From Ulvibacterium marinum (GTDB lineage: Bacteria; Bacteroidota; Bacteroidia; Flavobacteriales; Flavobacteriaceae), in contig NZ_RBCJ01000003.1 in the NCBI RefSeq assembly GCF_003626755.1, forward strand, positions 167,859 through 191,858: a stretch of 24,000 nucleotides of DNA. Reading direction: 5' to 3'. The position numbers and the translations under genes are program-made. The first letter of the stretch is position 1. Each line of letters opens with the position of its first letter. Below the pieces are notes generated by a model. That model saw only the letters and a list, made by a program, of their open reading frames with translations. It was not told the DNA's origin and did no database searches. Positions 17,561 to 23,660 of this stretch are shown here, piece by piece.

Positions 17561-18880
17561 CTATTCCATTGTATAGTTGAAAACGCTACCGGCTTGTTTT
17601 AAGACCATGGTCTTTTCATTGGGGGTAAATTCCAATCGTACTCCGGCCTGCGCAAACTCGAATACATCCTTTTCCACGGCTTCCATAGGAAAGGAAGGTT
17701 GTCCCGTAGCTTGGCCAAAAAGAGTATCCCCTTCCTTGGTTATTGTAATTTTTAACGGCATTTGTTCACTGGCATAGACCCCAAGATATTTATCCAAATC
17801 TTTTGAATGTACTTTGATGGTCTTAAAAGTGGGAATCTCAAAAGGATTTCCATAATACGCGCTCAATACGGCAATGATGATATTATTATTGGCATAGCGA
17901 TTGCCATTGGAGGTCAGGGCTATCGAGACCTTATCCTCAGGCATATACCCCAGGACGGAGGTAAACCCATCTATTCCGCCATTGTGGCCATATCCACTTT
18001 TGTTGTAGAAGGGTACCGGAAAAATACCCATGCCATAACCATCAGAAATGGTTTTCATCTGGTAGAGGCTTTCCATGGAAATCAACGTCCCCGTAAAAAG
18101 GGCGTGTATGAAGGTGTTTAAATCGGTTGGTGTAGAAACCATAGCACCCGCCCCTAAGGGGATGGACATATGGGTCTCATCCTTTTTTTTCCAATCTTTT
18201 TCATAGGTGTAGGAATGGGCCTCATTATGGTCTAAATTAATGGGACCTCCTACATAGGTGTTTTTTAGGTCTAGGGGTCCGGTAACCTTTTCGGATATGA
18301 GTTCTGAATAGGTCTTTTTGAAGGCATCTTCTAGAATAAACGTCAACAGCACATAGTTGGAGTTACTATATTGAGCCTTACTATCAGGATCAAAGACACT
18401 TCCGCCATCTCGGATGATTTCAAGGAGCTCGGCCCTTGTTTTGGGTTCGGTATCCCAATCTTGGTAATCGGGACGGCTTGTAAAACTATGGATACCACTT
18501 CTGTGGTTTAACAGATTGGCAATGGAGATTTGATCGCTATTTTCGATTTCTGGGAAATAGGCATCGATGGTTTGGTCGAGTTTTAGTTTGCCGGTTTCTA
18601 CAGCCTTAAAAATAAGTACCGAGGTAAACATTTTGGTTATGGACCCCACCCTGTATTTAGTGCCTACGGTAGGTTTTAGGCTGTTTTTTACATCCCTATG
18701 TCCAATCGCCTTGGCGTATATCGTTCGACCTTTATGGGAAAGGGCCAAACTTCCCATAAAACGGTCATTGATTTCCAAGGTGTTAAAAAGACTGTCCAGT
18801 TTAGCAGCATCGATCTGCTGTGAAACCCCGGACAGAGAGATAAGGCCGGTTAACAAAAAGGTCAGGAAGTTTTTTTGCAT
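17561..18880 (-). CDS. secreted beta-lactamase-fold serine hydrolase (PBP/esterase-like) with extra C-terminal beta domain
   Basis: 439-aa ORF with a signal peptide (FLLTGLISLSGVSQQ). It has SxxK (SITK), Y-x-N (YSN), and HNG in place of KTG (GYGHNGGIDGF). About 90 C-terminal residues form an additional domain. Confidence 0.8.
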   Translation of the reverse strand: MQKNFLTFLLTGLISLSGVSQQIDAAKLDSLFNTLEINDRFMGSLALSHKGRTIYAKAIGHRDVKNSLKPTVGTKYRVGSITKMFTSVLIFKAVETGKLKLDQTIDAYFPEIENSDQISIANLLNHRSGIHSFTSRPDYQDWDTEPKTRAELLEIIRDGGSVFDPDSKAQYSNSNYVLLTFILEDAFKKTYSELISEKVTGPLDLKNTYVGGPINLDHNEAHSYTYEKDWKKKDETHMSIPLGAGAMVSTPTDLNTFIHALFTGTLISMESLYQMKTISDGYGMGIFPVPFYNKSGYGHNGGIDGFTSVLGYMPEDKVSIALTSNGNRYANNNIIIAVLSAYYGNPFEIPTFKTIKVHSKDLDKYLGVYASEQMPLKITITKEGDTLFGQATGQPSFPMEAVEKDVFEFAQAGVRLEFTPNEKTMVLKQAGSVFNYTME

Positions 18881-18897
18881 ATCAGAGGTTTAAGAAA

Positions 18898-19413
18898 CTA
18901 TTCAAAAAAAGGAAATAGGGCCGCTTTATGTGCCCAGGCCACTGAAACAAACATTCCCAAAAATATCACTGTGACCAAAAATTTTAGGAAAGTGCCCGTC
19001 AAGAATCCTAGAAAGGAACCAAAAGCGGCCTTCATTGCCGTCTTTCTGTCCGCTTTGTTAACGATTTCACCCACAAGGGCACCCACAAACGGCCAAATAA
19101 TAATTCCGAATATACCCAATATAGGGAATACCAAGGCTACCAACAATCCAATGGTAGTTCCTATCATTCCGGCCCTGCTTCCGCCAAATTTCCTGGTCCC
19201 CATTGCTGGGATTATGTAATCTAATGCAACGACAATAATTGCAACTCCGAGGGTGATGCCCAATAACCACCAATCTTGTGGAACGGCCTTCGTTAGATAT
19301 AGCAATAATAGGCCTACCCAACTTATAGGAGGCCCAGGAAGTACGGGCAAAAAACTTCCCAGAATGCCAATGAGCATTAAAATAAATCCTAGGACCAGTA
19401 ATACAATATCCAT
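18898..19413 (-). CDS. DUF456-type polytopic membrane protein
   Basis: The ORF is hydrophobic throughout and has the GSFLPVLPGPPISW motif. I prefer ATG 19413 (MDIVLLVLGF...) over the track start at 19485. It ends 17 nt upstream of the hydrolase gene, so the two are probably an operon. Confidence 0.65.
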   Translation of the reverse strand: MDIVLLVLGFILMLIGILGSFLPVLPGPPISWVGLLLLYLTKAVPQDWWLLGITLGVAIIVVALDYIIPAMGTRKFGGSRAGMIGTTIGLLVALVFPILGIFGIIIWPFVGALVGEIVNKADRKTAMKAAFGSFLGFLTGTFLKFLVTVIFLGMFVSVAWAHKAALFPFFE

Positions 19414-19494
19414 TTTTTCCTTTTCTGTTGGACTAAGATACACGCATTTTGTTACAGAAAATATACACGGCACTGTGATATCCATAAATTTTTT

Positions 19495-19510
19495 AACTAA
19501 ATAATTAGTT
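19495..19510. promoter_or_regulatory. operator-like dyad 1: AACTAA-ATAA-TTAGTT
   Basis: Perfect 6-bp inverted arms with a 4-nt spacer, read directly. It is the dyad nearest the DUF456/hydrolase side. Confidence 0.6.
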
Positions 19511-19512
19511 TT

Positions 19513-19528
19513 AACTAAAGATTTAGTT
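19513..19528. promoter_or_regulatory. operator-like dyad 2: AACTAA-AGAT-TTAGTT
   Basis: Same arms as dyad 1, with centres 18 bp apart. It abuts the blaI -7 box. Confidence 0.6.
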
Positions 19529-19535
19529 ATATTTG
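19528..19535 (+). promoter_or_regulatory. -7 promoter motif (TATATTTG) for the blaI-like operon
   Basis: Exact TAnnTTTG match 29 nt upstream of ATG 19565, flanked by dyads 2 and 3. Confidence 0.45.
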
Positions 19536-19546
19536 AATATTATTTG

Positions 19547-19562
19547 AACTAAAAACTTAGTT
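19547..19562. promoter_or_regulatory. operator-like dyad 3: AACTAA-AAAC-TTAGTT
   Basis: Same arms as dyads 1 and 2. It ends 2 nt before the blaI-like ATG, in the predicted initial transcribed region. Confidence 0.6.
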
Positions 19563-19564
19563 AA

Positions 19565-19927
19565 ATGAAGCAATTGACCAAAGCGGAAGAAGAGGTAATG
19601 CAAATTCTCTGGAAGCTGGAAAAATGTAATGTGGCGGCCATTATAGATGAAGTCCCTGAACCCAAACCCGCCTATAATACGGTTTCTACCATTGTACGGA
19701 TTTTGGAGAGTAAAGGATTTGTAGACCATGAGAAAGAGGGAAAAGGATACTTGTATTTTCCACTGATTAAGAAATCGGATTATAGCAATCAGTCCATAAA
19801 CAAATTAGTGGACGGTTATTTTCAGGGATCTTTTAAGAGCATGGTGTCCTTCTTTATGAAAAAGAACGATATGAGTCTTTCAGAATTGGAATCCATTTTA
19901 AAAGAAATCAAAAAAGACGAAAAATGA
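19565..19927 (+). CDS. BlaI/MecI/CopY family winged-helix repressor
   Basis: 120-aa ORF. LTKAEEEVMQILW...YNTVSTIVRILESKGFV is typical of this family. Its stop overlaps the next gene's start (ATGA). Confidence 0.85.
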   Translation: MKQLTKAEEEVMQILWKLEKCNVAAIIDEVPEPKPAYNTVSTIVRILESKGFVDHEKEGKGYLYFPLIKKSDYSNQSINKLVDGYFQGSFKSMVSFFMKKNDMSLSELESILKEIKKDEK

Positions 19928-21897
19928 TACAGTATGTCCTAGAATGTATTGCCTTTCAGTTGGTGTTTTTGGCCATATATGATTTTTGGCTAAAACGTGA
20001 AACCTTTTTTCAATGGAACAGAGTCTATCTTATAGGCACGTATCTGCTTTCGATGATATTGCCCTGGGTGAAAATAGAAGCTTTTAGAACCGAAGTGCCT
20101 ACAGCTTTTCAAGGATATCCGGAATTTCTTTGGAATTTGAACAATGCCACAATAACGGTCACAGGGGATAAAGGGTCTACCTTTGCCCTGTCTTGGGAGC
20201 TAGTCCTGTTGTTTAGCGGTATGATTTTGACCACCGTTTTTTTTGCGTACAAGCTATTCCAGATCCGCAAACTAAAACGGCTAGGGGAAGTACACTATTT
20301 CAATGAGTTTACCCGGGTAATCCTTCCCAACAGCACAGCTGCCTTTTCCTTTCTCAGAGCCATTTTTTTAGGCGATAAGGTAGTCGAAAGAGAACACGAT
20401 ACCATCATTAAGCATGAACTGGTCCATATTCGGCAAAGACACTCATACGACCTCATATTCTTTGAATTGATGCGCATCTTGGGTTGGTTTAATCCGTTGG
20501 TCTATGTTTATCAAAATCGGATTTCGGAATTGCATGAATTCATTGCGGATGCCCATACGGCCAAAACCCATAAAAAGGAGCAAGTCCAACTTTTGTTGTC
20601 CCAAGTGTTCCAGACACGGAATATCTCCTTCATCAATCAATTTTTTAAAAAATCATTAATTAAAAAACGGATAGTCATGTTACAAAAATCAAAATCAAGT
20701 ACACTTTGGAAGTTAAAATATATGGCCTTGATACCTATGGTTATGGGTATGTTGTTGTATTCTTCCTGTGAGAACGAGGGTAATTCCCAGGATTCCATAG
20801 AAAATGAAAATGGGATTATTACGGTAGGAGACGTTGAAAATTTGACACAGGAGGAGGAGAATTATGTTTATGCACAGTTGAAATCACTCTCCGAAAAAGA
20901 CGGAGACTGGGAACTACAAGTACGGGATACGGAAACTGTACTGGATTTTGTAAGCACGGACAAAGATGTATTTGTCACGGGACTTCATAATGAGCCCATT
21001 CGAGCACAGATGACCATTGACTTTAAGGATTCACAAAGGTTTTATAAAAATTTTATGGGATCGGTTGGAGAGGGTTCCAGTTGGAAGGAAACGTATAAAA
21101 CAAACAATATGGTTCCTTTCGCCTTTGCAGGGGAATCACCAATTTTTCCGGGATGCGAGGACGATTCCGATCAGCGGGCCTGTTTCAACAAAATGATGCA
21201 AAAACACATCAGTAAGAATTTTCGATATCCTCAAGAAGCCCAACAGCTTGGAATCCAAGGGAGGGTCAATGTTATATTTACCATTGATGAGGCCGGGAAC
21301 ATTACTGATATTCGAAAACGTGGGCCCCACCAATTATTGGAGGATGAGGTTGTACGGATTATTGAAAAATTACCCCAAATGAAGCCTGGTAAGTATGAAG
21401 GTAAAGCGGTAAAAGTACCATTTTCCATTCCCATTACCTTTAGTTTAGGACAGGCTAGTTTTAGTCCCGCCTCCCAGGATCCGGATTATGTAAGACTACA
21501 GCAAGAACAGTTGAAGGAATTATCGGAAGAAATTCAATTACAATACCGGGATGCATTTCCATTCGCAATAGTGGAGAAAGCACCAATTTTTCCGGGTTGT
21601 GAAGATGCCTCTGACCCTAAAGCCTGTTTTCAGCAAAAAATCCAGAGGCATATAGCTAAACATTTTAGGTATCCGCAGGAAGCACAAAAGAAAGGAATAC
21701 AGGGAAGGGTAAATATTATGTTTTTAATAGATGCCGAAGGGAATATTACGAATATTGCCAAAAGAGGTCCTGACAAGACATTGGAAGACGAGGCTGTACG
21801 GATTATTTCGCGATTGCCCAAGATGAAACCGGGAAGTCAAGATGGTAAAAATGTCAGTGTTCCATTTTCAATTCCTATCACCTTTAAACTAAAATAA
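19924..21897 (+). CDS. BlaR1-like M56 membrane metalloprotease fused to two tandem TonB-C-like domains
   Basis: 657-aa ORF with N-terminal TM helices, HExxH in KHELVHIRQRHSYD, and a further TM (YMALIPMVMGMLLY). Two 103-aa domains follow, each starting PIFPGCED and ending VPFSIPITF. No penicillin-binding SxxK sensor domain is present. Confidence 0.8.
   Translation: MIQYVLECIAFQLVFLAIYDFWLKRETFFQWNRVYLIGTYLLSMILPWVKIEAFRTEVPTAFQGYPEFLWNLNNATITVTGDKGSTFALSWELVLLFSGMILTTVFFAYKLFQIRKLKRLGEVHYFNEFTRVILPNSTAAFSFLRAIFLGDKVVEREHDTIIKHELVHIRQRHSYDLIFFELMRILGWFNPLVYVYQNRISELHEFIADAHTAKTHKKEQVQLLLSQVFQTRNISFINQFFKKSLIKKRIVMLQKSKSSTLWKLKYMALIPMVMGMLLYSSCENEGNSQDSIENENGIITVGDVENLTQEEENYVYAQLKSLSEKDGDWELQVRDTETVLDFVSTDKDVFVTGLHNEPIRAQMTIDFKDSQRFYKNFMGSVGEGSSWKETYKTNNMVPFAFAGESPIFPGCEDDSDQRACFNKMMQKHISKNFRYPQEAQQLGIQGRVNVIFTIDEAGNITDIRKRGPHQLLEDEVVRIIEKLPQMKPGKYEGKAVKVPFSIPITFSLGQASFSPASQDPDYVRLQQEQLKELSEEIQLQYRDAFPFAIVEKAPIFPGCEDASDPKACFQQKIQRHIAKHFRYPQEAQKKGIQGRVNIMFLIDAEGNITNIAKRGPDKTLEDEAVRIISRLPKMKPGSQDGKNVSVPFSIPITFKLK
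21139..21891 (+). repeat. intragenic tandem domain duplication (copy 1 at 21139..21447, copy 2 at 21583..21891)
   Basis: Hand alignment gives 71/103 identical residues, and the nucleotide similarity is clearly recognisable. The copies are separated by a 45-aa Q/E-rich linker. Confidence 0.85.
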
Positions 21898-21903
21898 TAC
21901 AAA

Positions 21904-23040
21904 GTGAGAATAATCTTCTTGGCTTTTTTGTTGTTTGTGGTCAAGGCCGGAGCCCAATCTTCGGCCTCGTCCATTGCTGATAGTTTGTTCGCCACAGGTC
22001 ACTATACCAAGGCCATTAATTATTATGCACGAACCGCAAGTGCAAATTCTAGCCTGCAGATTGCTAGGGCCTATACGGCAATTGGCAATTTTGAAAAAGC
22101 GGTAGCGCAATATAAAAGTGTTGTAAAACTTCATCCGTCTTTACAGATTGCTTCCTTTGAATTGGGAAAGTTGCTAGTAAAGACCAAGGATTACGATGAA
22201 GCTAGAAAACTCTTTTCCAAGTTGGTGGGTATCGGAAAGGATAACCCGGAATATTATTATTATTTAGGGGAGGTCTATCGAGAGTTGGGACAACCTGCCA
22301 GTAGTATTGTAGCTTACAAAAAGGCCATCAATAGAGATAGCACACACTTACGAAGTTTGTTCCAGTTGGGTAAGTATTTCGTTATGAAACAGCTAAAAAA
22401 TCAAGCGTTACCTTATATTGAAAAGGGATTGGAATTCTATCCTAATGATGTGGCCTTGATCAACTTAAAGGCATTGGCTTTTTTCAATAATGATGAATAC
22501 GACAAAGCCATGCCCCTGTTTGAACGTTTGGTGGAGTTAGGCGAACGAAAAGAATACATTTACACTAAACTGGCTTATTGCCAATTTAAAAGTTGGGAGC
22601 TGGAAAAGGCCAAAAAGAGCTACAAAGTTTTGCTGGATATTGATGATGCCAATGCAGACGCCTATTTTCATCTCGGCCACGTATTTTGGAAAGACCAAAA
22701 ACTAGATAGTGCCCGGTTCTATTTCAATAGATCCACAGAGGTGCAAAAACCTGTTTTATGGAGGGAGTATGAAAGCTTGGCCCGTTTGGCCAGGGTAGAG
22801 GAAAATTTGAAAGGAGCACTCAAATACTACCAAATGGCCCATACAGAAGACCCCTTAAACCCTATGACCTACTATAATGTTTGTACCTTGACCGACCAAA
22901 TTTATGAAGACCCCAAAACCAGCTTGGAATACTATGAAACATACATGGAAAAATTTGGAACTATGCGACCCTATGTCACCGATTTTGTCACCAAACGAAT
23001 CCGCCAATTAAAGGAGGAAATCCATTTTACCTCCGATTAG
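21904..23040 (+). CDS. secreted tetratricopeptide-repeat protein
   Basis: 378-aa ORF with a GTG start 6 nt after the blaR1-like stop and a signal peptide (IFLAFLLFVVKAGAQ). It has multiple TPR-like units, for example YYYLGEVYRELGQPASSIVAYKKAINRDS. Confidence 0.75.
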   Translation: MRIIFLAFLLFVVKAGAQSSASSIADSLFATGHYTKAINYYARTASANSSLQIARAYTAIGNFEKAVAQYKSVVKLHPSLQIASFELGKLLVKTKDYDEARKLFSKLVGIGKDNPEYYYYLGEVYRELGQPASSIVAYKKAINRDSTHLRSLFQLGKYFVMKQLKNQALPYIEKGLEFYPNDVALINLKALAFFNNDEYDKAMPLFERLVELGERKEYIYTKLAYCQFKSWELEKAKKSYKVLLDIDDANADAYFHLGHVFWKDQKLDSARFYFNRSTEVQKPVLWREYESLARLARVEENLKGALKYYQMAHTEDPLNPMTYYNVCTLTDQIYEDPKTSLEYYETYMEKFGTMRPYVTDFVTKRIRQLKEEIHFTSD

Positions 23041-23082
23041 ATTGTGTAAAAAATCGTAATTTCCACCCAAGAATTGGAGGGT

Positions 23083-23559
23083 ATGCGACACTTTTGGATG
23101 CTGTTGGTTTTTTGTGGTCTGGCTTCCTGCAATCTGTGGGTCTCCAAAGACAAGAAGACCCAGGAAATGGTGGACCAGGAAATACAAGCCATTGATTGGA
23201 ACAATGTGGACAACTACCCCTTATTTGAGAACTGTGACGAGACTGCATCCAAAATAGGGCAAAGGGAGTGTTTTGAACAGGAGCTCTTGTCCCATTTTTC
23301 GGCTACCCTAACAGAATTCGAATTTATATTAGGTTCAGAAATCGACTCTACCATTACTGTTGATTTTTTGGTGGATAAGGAAGGAAAAATAACCATCCTG
23401 GAGATTGTAAAGGATAATGAAATCGATGGACAAATGCCAGAATTTGAAGGTATTGTTCGTCAAAGCCTTAAGAACATGCCTCCTTTGGCTCCGGCCCTAA
23501 AGAGGGGTATTCCGGTCTCAGCAAAATTCCGGTTGCCCATACGCTTACGCAGTAATTAG
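23083..23559 (+). CDS. lipoprotein with a single TonB-C-like domain (paralog of the BlaR1-like C-terminal domains)
   Basis: I prefer ATG 23083 (MRHFWMLLVFCGLASC, a lipobox) over TTG 23074. YPLFENCDE...ECFEQ...VDFLVDKEGKI...GIPVSAKFRLPIRL parallels PIFPGCED...ACF...FTIDEAGNI...VPFSIPITF. Confidence 0.7.
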   Translation: MRHFWMLLVFCGLASCNLWVSKDKKTQEMVDQEIQAIDWNNVDNYPLFENCDETASKIGQRECFEQELLSHFSATLTEFEFILGSEIDSTITVDFLVDKEGKITILEIVKDNEIDGQMPEFEGIVRQSLKNMPPLAPALKRGIPVSAKFRLPIRLRSN

Positions 23560-23618: not shown

Positions 23619-23660
23619 TTAAACCATAAACCATAAACCATAAACCATAAACCATAAGAC
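23619..23660 (+). repeat. heptanucleotide tandem array (TAAACCA)x5 plus one degenerate unit (TAAGACC)
   Basis: Counted directly: 5 perfect units at 23619..23653, then TAAGACC at 23654..23660. It ends at the base before the ruvC TTG start. Confidence 0.95.

Follow-up and report, generated by a model that had tools for sequence, protein, structure and literature searches.

The closest described systems are BlaI-BlaR1 and MecI-MecR1 of Staphylococcus aureus and Bacillus licheniformis, in which the gene for a PF03965 repressor lies just ahead of that for a polytopic M56 HExxH protease, the operon's own promoter carries palindromic operators and a signal triggers cleavage of the repressor (PMC7593790, PMC9834060). 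The sensor of BlaR1 and MecR1 is a class-D-like acyl-serine domain, and the target is a divergently transcribed gene for a β-lactamase or penicillin-binding protein (PBP). Only about 6% of BlaR-like proteins carry a β-lactam domain; M56 joined to TonB_C is the second commonest BlaR-like architecture, and 96% of BlaR-like proteins are BlaI-linked (Kurtz et al. 2026, PMC13492132). In this study, a stretch of 24,000 nt from Ulvibacterium marinum (assembly GCF_003626755.1, contig NZ_RBCJ01000003.1, positions 167,859 to 191,858 of the forward strand; hereafter the window) was analysed, in which a blaI gene is directly followed by a gene for an M56 protease with two TonB_C-type domains. The M56+TonB_C class is defined by M56 followed by C-terminal TonB_C, with a BlaI gene at most five genes away (Kurtz 2026; Chu 2007), and this is the content found here. 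The locus is a real, conserved switch of this catalogued class, the architecture of which is in itself unsurprising to a specialist.

CenIR of Clostridioides difficile, a BlaIR system that lacks a β-lactam domain, regulates cell-wall enzymes and an exported protein encoded next to it (PMC13492132). As at the present locus, the exported protein is encoded immediately downstream, and the envelope enzymes of the CenIR regulon (amidase, L,D-transpeptidase) parallel the exported hydrolases found behind the operator module in relatives of U. marinum. However, CenR has a short C-terminal region without a recognisable domain and a Firmicute host, whereas the protease here carries TonB_C domains, and autoregulation could not be determined for CenIR, whereas predicted autoregulation is the best-supported feature of the present locus. 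Fusions of M56 with TonB were noted by Chu, Peacock & Vogel (2007), as cited in PMC10350073. TonB10/BT3898 of Bacteroides thetaiotaomicron, which has the same combination of M56 with dual TonB_C and is likened to the present protein by architecture and not by orthology, is said to be uncharacterised and of a type limited to Bacteroidetes (Pollet et al. preprint, PMC10350073). A TonB_C-only protein, TonB9/BT3896, is encoded near it, as is a lipoprotein here; unlike the present locus, a DsbE-like thioredoxin gene parts tonB9 and tonB10, and TonB10 has no described operator, regulon or TPR partner. The literature on M56-TonB_C/BlaI in Bacteroidota, where such pairs are abundant, yielded no functional work and no characterised member with a signal, operator or regulon, which agrees with a first-pass annotation of this DNA that had called such fusions common but without a defined signal or regulon (PMC10350073, PMC13492132). 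Two candidate reports of functional work, PMC12578637 and PMC12632263, were false matches (a catalogue number and an author name), and a Bizionia copper paper lists BlaI-family genes without a CopY site and says nothing more on BlaI.

At the U. marinum locus, blaI, the M56 gene and, in this genome, a TPR gene probably constitute an autoregulated proteolytic switch of the BlaIR family. Open reading frames (ORFs), profile searches and motif positions recovered every gene, junction and motif of the first-pass annotation where it had placed them. The features of the switch are as follows:

19495 to 19510, no strand: candidate operator dyad 1, AACTAAataaTTAGTT, covering the −33 region of the blaI promoter.
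19513 to 19528, no strand: candidate operator dyad 2, AACTAAagatTTAGTT, the last T of which is the first base of the −7 box.
19528 to 19535, plus strand: −7 promoter box TATATTTG (TAnnTTTG) of the blaI operon, recognised by its sequence, with a position conserved across loci.
19547 to 19562, no strand: candidate operator dyad 3, AACTAAaaacTTAGTT, within the leader and ending 2 nt short of the blaI ATG.
19565 to 19927, plus strand: blaI, a winged-helix repressor of the BlaI/MecI/CopY family, 120 aa, PF03965.
19924 to 21897, plus strand: M56 membrane metalloprotease with two C-terminal TonB_C-type domains, 657 aa, PF05569 and PF03544.
20413 to 20427, plus strand: HELVH motif, residues 164-168 of the M56 protein.
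About 21121 to 21441, plus strand: TonB_C-like domain 1, within the M56 gene.
About 21571 to 21894, plus strand: TonB_C-like domain 2, within the M56 gene.
21904 to 23040, plus strand: exported TPR protein, 378 aa, matching multiple TPR Pfam families, with an N-terminal signal-like segment.

For the synteny analysis, the window proteins were mapped onto 80 orthologous loci in reference genomes from the Maribacter/Zobellia/Flagellimonas/Cellulophaga clade. Upstream genes were counted only in loci with at least 4 kb upstream (n = 72) and downstream genes only in loci with at least 3 kb downstream (n = 70), and operators were compared across the 80 genome loci (1.53 Mb) and 120 metagenomic sites.

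TAnnTTTG is the established −7 promoter consensus of Bacteroidota. Three perfect AACTAA-N4-TTAGTT dyads surround this box in the 151-bp spacer between blaI and a divergent DUF456 gene, against a chance expectation of 0.01 for the window, and no further dyad of this form occurs elsewhere in the 24 kb. The first-pass annotation had described a 150-bp region with three dyads; the dyads proved to be real and conserved, but all three are crowded into the blaI-proximal 68 bp and are not spread across the spacer. In the 80 genome loci, 185 of the 191 perfect dyads are placed upstream of blaI at a distance of at most 300 bp, and the remaining 6 stand at the head of rearranged M56-first blaI operons. 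The dyad arms are invariant and their spacers variable, and the coverage of the −33, −7 and leader regions by dyads is conserved in 75 loci. In the common layout, a T-rich tract precedes dyad 1, which is followed after 2 nt by dyad 2 and the −7 box; about 11 nt further on come dyad 3 and the blaI ATG. The overlap between dyad and −7 box is exactly 1 nt, in the same register, in 66 of 75 loci. Where blaI is absent, in Muriicola (L086) and Spongiimicrobium (L087), the dyads are absent too, and where an insertion of about 3 kb parts blaI from DUF456 they remain with blaI. This conservation and placement were observed directly; as read from the DNA, the arrangement of dyads and −7 box is the geometry of autorepression. 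That the dyads are autoregulatory operators of blaI's own promoter, presumably bound by BlaI itself, is the best-supported feature of the locus.

Departures from the common layout were also recorded. In the Cellulophaga loci L063, L069 and L079, the module is tandemly duplicated and reordered (M56 - blaI - M56 - blaI), and the dyads precede an M56 gene and not blaI directly. Seven loci (L026, L072, L073, L076, L033, L012 and L024) have leaders of 100-250 nt between the operator/−7 box and blaI, and in these long leaders a hairpin-like GATTCCCG...CGGGAATGA element occurs that may be a small repetitive insertion. At L134 (3230-5082), three dyads are kept beside a frameshifted-looking DUF456 gene, after which come about 776 bp with no ORF reaching 60 aa and then the lipoprotein gene; the whole resembles a decayed switch.

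The blaI product matches PF03965 with 113 bits over profile positions 1-114 of 115, which corresponds to a full-length winged helix and C-terminal dimerisation domain, and aligns with MecI (1okr) over residues 3-113 (E 1.5e-15). It is not an equivalog of staphylococcal BlaI/MecI (MecI model 58 bits, cutoff 250) or of CopY (CopY_TcrY model 56 bits, cutoff 122), and the translated gene has no C-terminal Cys-rich metal site, its sole Cys being residue 21. blaI is present in 72/72 loci, with 75-98% identity of the product across 79 loci, and the median identity among orthologs is 88% for BlaI versus 52% for the M56 protein. The description of a BlaI-family repressor gene coupled through ATGA to the gene for a 657-aa M56 HELVH protease was borne out, the two genes overlapping at 19924-19927.

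The M56 protein matches PF05569 with 45.6 bits (cutoff 31), and residues 153-264 align to BlaR1 (8exs). Residues H164, E165, H168, E202 and E205, which comprise the HExxH and the downstream Glu ligand, are unchanged in 49 orthologs. The C-terminal half consists of the two TonB_C domains (PF03544, 125 bits in two stretches; TonB model TIGR01352, 89 bits), and no PF00905-type, β-lactamase or SxxK sensor domain was found in the protein, which scores 23 bits against a cutoff of 400 with the NCBIfam model blaR1_generic. The first-pass assignment of the sensor as two tandem TonB-C-like domains and not an acyl-serine SxxK domain therefore stands. The YP motif of TonB is kept in each domain (residues 435 and 583) and is invariant in orthologs, and each domain opens with a conserved Cys pair (FPGCE...C-F; residues 411/420 and 559/568). 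The top Foldseek matches of the sensor are TonB C-terminal domains (probability 1.00, target-normalised TM-score, TMt, 0.6-0.74), including TonB in complex with FoxA, BtuB and FhuA. In the AlphaFold model, both TonB_C-type domains have a predicted local distance difference test score (pLDDT) of about 85-92, and a small juxtamembrane alpha/beta domain (about residues 296-366) has about 75-81. In orthologous sensors (P0028, P0007, P0062, P0030, P0023) there are one to three TonB_C domains, and the C-terminus of some is a partial Plug or CarboxypepD_reg module. Such modules are normally N-terminal parts of TonB-dependent transporters.

The TPR gene starts 6 nt past the M56 stop codon and is probably the last gene of the blaI-M56 operon. 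It is present in 49 of 70 loci and is missing together with blaI and M56 in L086 and L087; its presence is uncorrelated with the number of TonB_C domains in the orthologous loci.

The switch would operate as follows. BlaI dimers would occupy the three AACTAA-N4-TTAGTT operators, over the −33 region, abutting the −7 box and in the leader, and keep the operon low. The M56 protein is predicted to span the inner membrane, with its HExxH gluzincin domain in the cytoplasm and the two TonB_C-type domains and the juxtamembrane domain in the periplasm; the loop 111-262 contains 24 Lys/Arg, which fits a cytoplasmic location, and the host is Gram-negative and not a Staphylococcus or Bacillus, so the sensor would be periplasmic. 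The TonB_C-type domains may then detect a periplasmic event, the likeliest being the binding of a TonB-box-type beta-strand ligand from an outer-membrane transporter or another envelope protein. The activated protease would cut BlaI in its dimerisation region, near F96-F97, which would derepress the operon in a positive feedback loop; distal hydrolase genes may come under the same control. FecA-FecR-FecI signalling offers an analogy in the way it works, an inner-membrane protein that spans the periplasm reading an outer-membrane, TonB-dependent transporter and regulated proteolysis altering transcription (PMC7593790). However, its output is the release of an extracytoplasmic function (ECF) sigma factor through anti-sigma cleavage, none of its components is homologous, and transporter contact is hypothetical here.

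Further features of the window lie on either side of the switch:

17561 to 18880, minus strand: exported S12-family serine hydrolase (R61 DD-peptidase / alkaline D-peptidase type) with a C-terminal DUF3471, PF00144 184 bits.
18898 to 19413, minus strand: DUF456 membrane protein, 171 aa, PF04306 126 bits, four hydrophobic segments.
19433 to 19455, minus strand: promoter-like element of DUF456 (GTAAC ... TATCTTAG), conserved at about −43/−28 from the DUF456 ATG.
23050 to 23063, plus strand: conserved element AAAATCGTAATTTC upstream of the lipoprotein gene, once per locus at a fixed position about 20-37 nt before the ATG.
23083 to 23559, plus strand: lipoprotein with a divergent TonB_C-like domain, 158 aa, lipobox LASC, related to the sensor domains by BLASTP.

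The M56 and DUF456 proteins share 99-100% identity with U. marinum entries, and the surroundings are core chromosome (cbb3 oxidase, hut operon, nitroreductase, ruvC). DUF456 was found in 72/72 loci and the nitroreductase gene in 68 of 72, and the unrelated hut genes are syntenic to the same degree as the neighbours of the switch; hence gene adjacency alone reflects clade-wide gene order. The DUF456 element (GTAAC...TAnnTTnG) is present in nearly all loci, even where blaI stands 3 kb apart or is missing. Across loci, the nearest dyad lies 8 to 3261 bp from this element (39 bp in the window), and no dyad overlaps the −33 or −7 elements of DUF456 in the window. The insertion of about 3 kb between DUF456 and blaI occurs in about 12 loci of the Flagellimonas/Muricauda type (L022 6742-9520; similar in L006, L025, L026, L028, L029, L035, L038, L054, L074, L075 and L078) and consists of a small His-rich ORF and a 741-aa TonB-dependent receptor gene, which is co-oriented with blaI and ends just before the dyads. 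The reported literature on DUF456, a hint of Mn homeostasis for Bacillus subtilis YqgC and genus-level adjacency to class A β-lactamases in Akkermansia, was not used as evidence.

The lipoprotein ATG lies 42 nt past the TPR stop, and the spacing of 6 and 42 nt downstream of the M56 gene is as the first-pass annotation gave it. That annotation had also read the lipoprotein as a third copy of the TonB-C-like domain. The Pfam TonB_C match is weak (E 5.6e-4, under the gathering score), yet BLASTP aligns the lipoprotein with either sensor domain (E 4e-9 and 3e-7), the alignment covering the shared P-x-F-x-x-C...C-F Cys pair (residues 52/64 of the lipoprotein), and the reading was retained. The lipoprotein gene is present in 67 of 70 loci and is kept in L086 and L087 without the switch, where AAAATCGTAATTTC also occurs (L086 5892-5905, L087 5896-5909). 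AAAATCGTAATTTC is probably the own promoter or control site of the lipoprotein gene; it does not match the canonical TAnnTTTG and so may be an unusual promoter or the site of a regulator. The lipoprotein is a possible partner of the switch, but a neighbour that does not appear to depend on it.

In Muriicola and Spongiimicrobium the gene order is ruvC, lipoprotein and divergent DUF456, with both neighbour elements intact and with blaI, M56, TPR and the dyads all absent, so that the separability of the neighbours was seen directly. Because the neighbours persist without the switch and the dyads are fixed to blaI, the dyads belong to blaI, and neither neighbour appears to depend on the switch. 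It is therefore probable, at the same level as the mechanism as a whole, that the DUF456/S12-peptidase pair and the lipoprotein gene are neighbours with promoters of their own and not dedicated targets.

The hydrolase starts 17 nt past the DUF456 stop, which confirmed the opposite-strand pair of DUF456 and a secreted β-lactamase-fold hydrolase. Its catalytic motifs are SITK80, YSN171 and HNG299, and the closest solved structures are alkaline D-peptidase (4y7p, E 1e-34) and R61 DD-peptidase (1cef, E 6e-28). It shares the SxxK, YxN and HxG motifs and the PF00144 fold with R61 DD-peptidase and the Bacillus cereus alkaline D-peptidase (MEROPS S12), but has an additional C-terminal DUF3471 domain. 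It is not an equivalog of class C β-lactamases (NCBIfam 71 bits, cutoff 415), and its third motif is HNG and not KTG. The hydrolase gene was found in only 10 of 72 loci (14%), the slot downstream of DUF456 being otherwise filled by other genes or empty; between DUF456 and the nitroreductase gene, Spongiimicrobium (L087 6540-7556) and Costertonia (L088 6531-7565) have a 338-344-aa protein without a Pfam match, and Muriicola (L086 6557-6727) has a 56-aa ORF. Homologs in Pedobacter, Flavobacterium and Riemerella, 57-58% identical, sit among unrelated genes, with blaI, M56 and DUF456 all missing from their vicinity, and among the homologs compared only Euzebyella, of the same clade, has the same arrangement. 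The presence of the hydrolase is uncorrelated with the dyad distance in the orthologous loci. The hydrolase gene is thus an accessory gene in a variable slot, an occasional passenger and not a conserved target of the switch. A neighbour with a β-lactamase fold does not make the locus a β-lactam- or PBP-linked resistance module.

Targets of the switch are more likely to be found elsewhere. The metagenome scan used the tandem-dyad signature, as a single dyad has only 12 specified bases, and 102 of the 120 sites obtained adjoin blaI, while 9 are cut by contig ends. In three contigs with 80-85% nucleotide identity, the module of dyads and −7 box lies directly upstream of a gene for an exported S41-domain protein of about 760 aa, and in other metagenomic contigs it lies directly upstream of genes for a C11 peptidase, a PF00756 esterase and a DoxX-like membrane protein. 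In the L146 contig, tandem dyads (1089-1122) precede a PF00756 esterase gene, and an isolated dyad with the same GTGT spacer (2508-2523) lies just past a YkuD L,D-transpeptidase gene, so that the two sites bracket the YkuD gene. This placement ahead of exported hydrolases suggests a regulon of exported or envelope hydrolases in metagenomic relatives, and the real targets of the switch, its effector genes, are probably distal, elsewhere in the genome. In an extended form of the proposal, the M56-TonB_C protein would be the receiver of a trans-envelope protease route: it would bind TonB boxes or TonB-box-like strands of ligand-loaded transporters or damaged envelope proteins, BlaI would be cleaved, and distal exported hydrolases (of S41, C11, esterase or S12 type) would be induced. 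We regard this extension as speculative and on balance unlikely.

Several observations weigh against the proposed switch or parts of it. The scissile N101-F102 of MecI/BlaI aligns to F96-F97 (VSF-FMKK) in the blaI product, and the staphylococcal cleavage site is thus not conserved here. The membrane and protease part of the AlphaFold model, with helices at 2-22, 29-57, 91-120 and 259-281, has low confidence (pLDDT 35-60) and is too poor to compare with BlaR1. The extra conserved Cys pair of the sensor domains is not found in canonical TonB, and no TonB-dependent transporter gene belongs to the conserved locus in the orthologs. Dyad 1 is only 39 bp from the promoter element of DUF456, so some effect on DUF456 and the hydrolase is possible. 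The operator sites away from blaI come from metagenomic contigs.

In the first-pass annotation, the locus was read as a bla-like divergon, in which BlaI at shared dyads represses both the blaI operon and the DUF456-hydrolase operon and the S12 hydrolase is the output. The divergent arrangement across a 151-bp spacer fits this reading, as do the constant adjacency of DUF456 and blaI (72/72 loci), a distance from dyad 1 to the DUF456 promoter element that is 8-40 bp in many loci besides this one, an esterase and PF00144 pair divergent from the same operator module in the L107 contig, and the cell-wall enzymes in the CenIR regulon. However, adjacency of this kind is shared by the equally syntenic hut and nitroreductase genes, the hydrolase is rare in these loci and unlinked to the switch in other genera, and the dyads hold their register with the blaI −7 box, stay with blaI across the 3-kb insertions and leave the DUF456 −33/−7 elements free in the window, while DUF456 and its promoter persist without blaI, M56 or dyads. 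Conserved synteny of the regulator operon with the hydrolase operon in relatives, which that annotation had itself set as a check, fails (10 of 72 loci), so the hydrolase-target reading largely fails by its own check. The divergon is therefore improbable, and the divergent hydrolase was dropped as a target of shared operators.

The M56-TonB_C protein might instead be mainly a TonB-like envelope component (a paralog, decoy or scaffold on TonB-dependent transporters), with its own abundance as the output and M56 serving its turnover and not signalling by BlaI cleavage. TonB10/BT3898 is counted among the TonB homologs of B. thetaiotaomicron, the TonB hallmarks are kept, the TPR gene is missing from 30% of loci, which may leave the operon with no other effector, and the insertion in the Flagellimonas/Muricauda loci places a TonB-dependent receptor gene directly upstream of blaI. 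However, the M56 protein has no N-terminal single anchor helix for ExbB/ExbD coupling with a Pro-rich spacer; its N-terminus is a four-helix protease with invariant zinc-site residues, and the window encodes neither ExbB nor ExbD. Coupling to blaI is obligatory (72/72 loci, with the ATGA overlap), 96% of M56 proteins in general are BlaI-linked, and autoregulatory operators are typical of signal-responsive repressor circuits; we consider this account quite improbable. A different palindrome-binding regulator could also bind the dyads, with BlaI acting elsewhere. The operators of staphylococcal BlaI/MecI are of the TACA/TGTA type, from which the AACTAA-N4-TTAGTT dyads differ. However, the dyads keep strictly to blaI (185 + 6 of 191 in the genome loci, 102/120 in the metagenome, none where blaI is deleted), the unusual conservation of BlaI matches the invariant dyad arms, and placement of operators at the repressor's own gene is the rule for the BlaI family, which makes another regulator highly improbable. 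On these grounds, the autoregulated switch of blaI, the M56 gene and the TPR gene is preferred.

Some general scans and one repeat are recorded for completeness. An Rfam scan of the window gave zero matches, and a scan for sigma-70 promoters and terminators was not enriched over shuffled sequences; this promoter type is wrong for Bacteroidota, and the TAnnTTTG analysis was used instead. The lipoprotein-ruvC spacer contains a perfect tandem repeat of a heptanucleotide, (TAAACCA) x 5.4, at 23620-23657, just 5' of the ruvC start.

Compared with the bla and mec systems, the U. marinum locus thus keeps the order of repressor and protease genes and the palindromic operators at the operon's own promoter, with signal-triggered repressor cleavage as the expected logic, whereas its sensor consists of two TonB_C-type domains, its operator is AACTAA-N4-TTAGTT, the scissile N-F pair is not conserved, and no divergent β-lactamase or PBP target is conserved. 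If true, the trans-envelope reading would give the second largest class of BlaR-like proteins both a signal and a regulon. The locus offers a phylogenetically footprinted operator (AACTAA-N4-TTAGTT x3 over the −7 box), a prediction of autoregulation and candidate target classes from relatives. The defined operator and candidate regulon make what M56+TonB_C systems sense and control directly testable, and the class thereby becomes tractable in genetically manipulable marine flavobacteria such as Zobellia.

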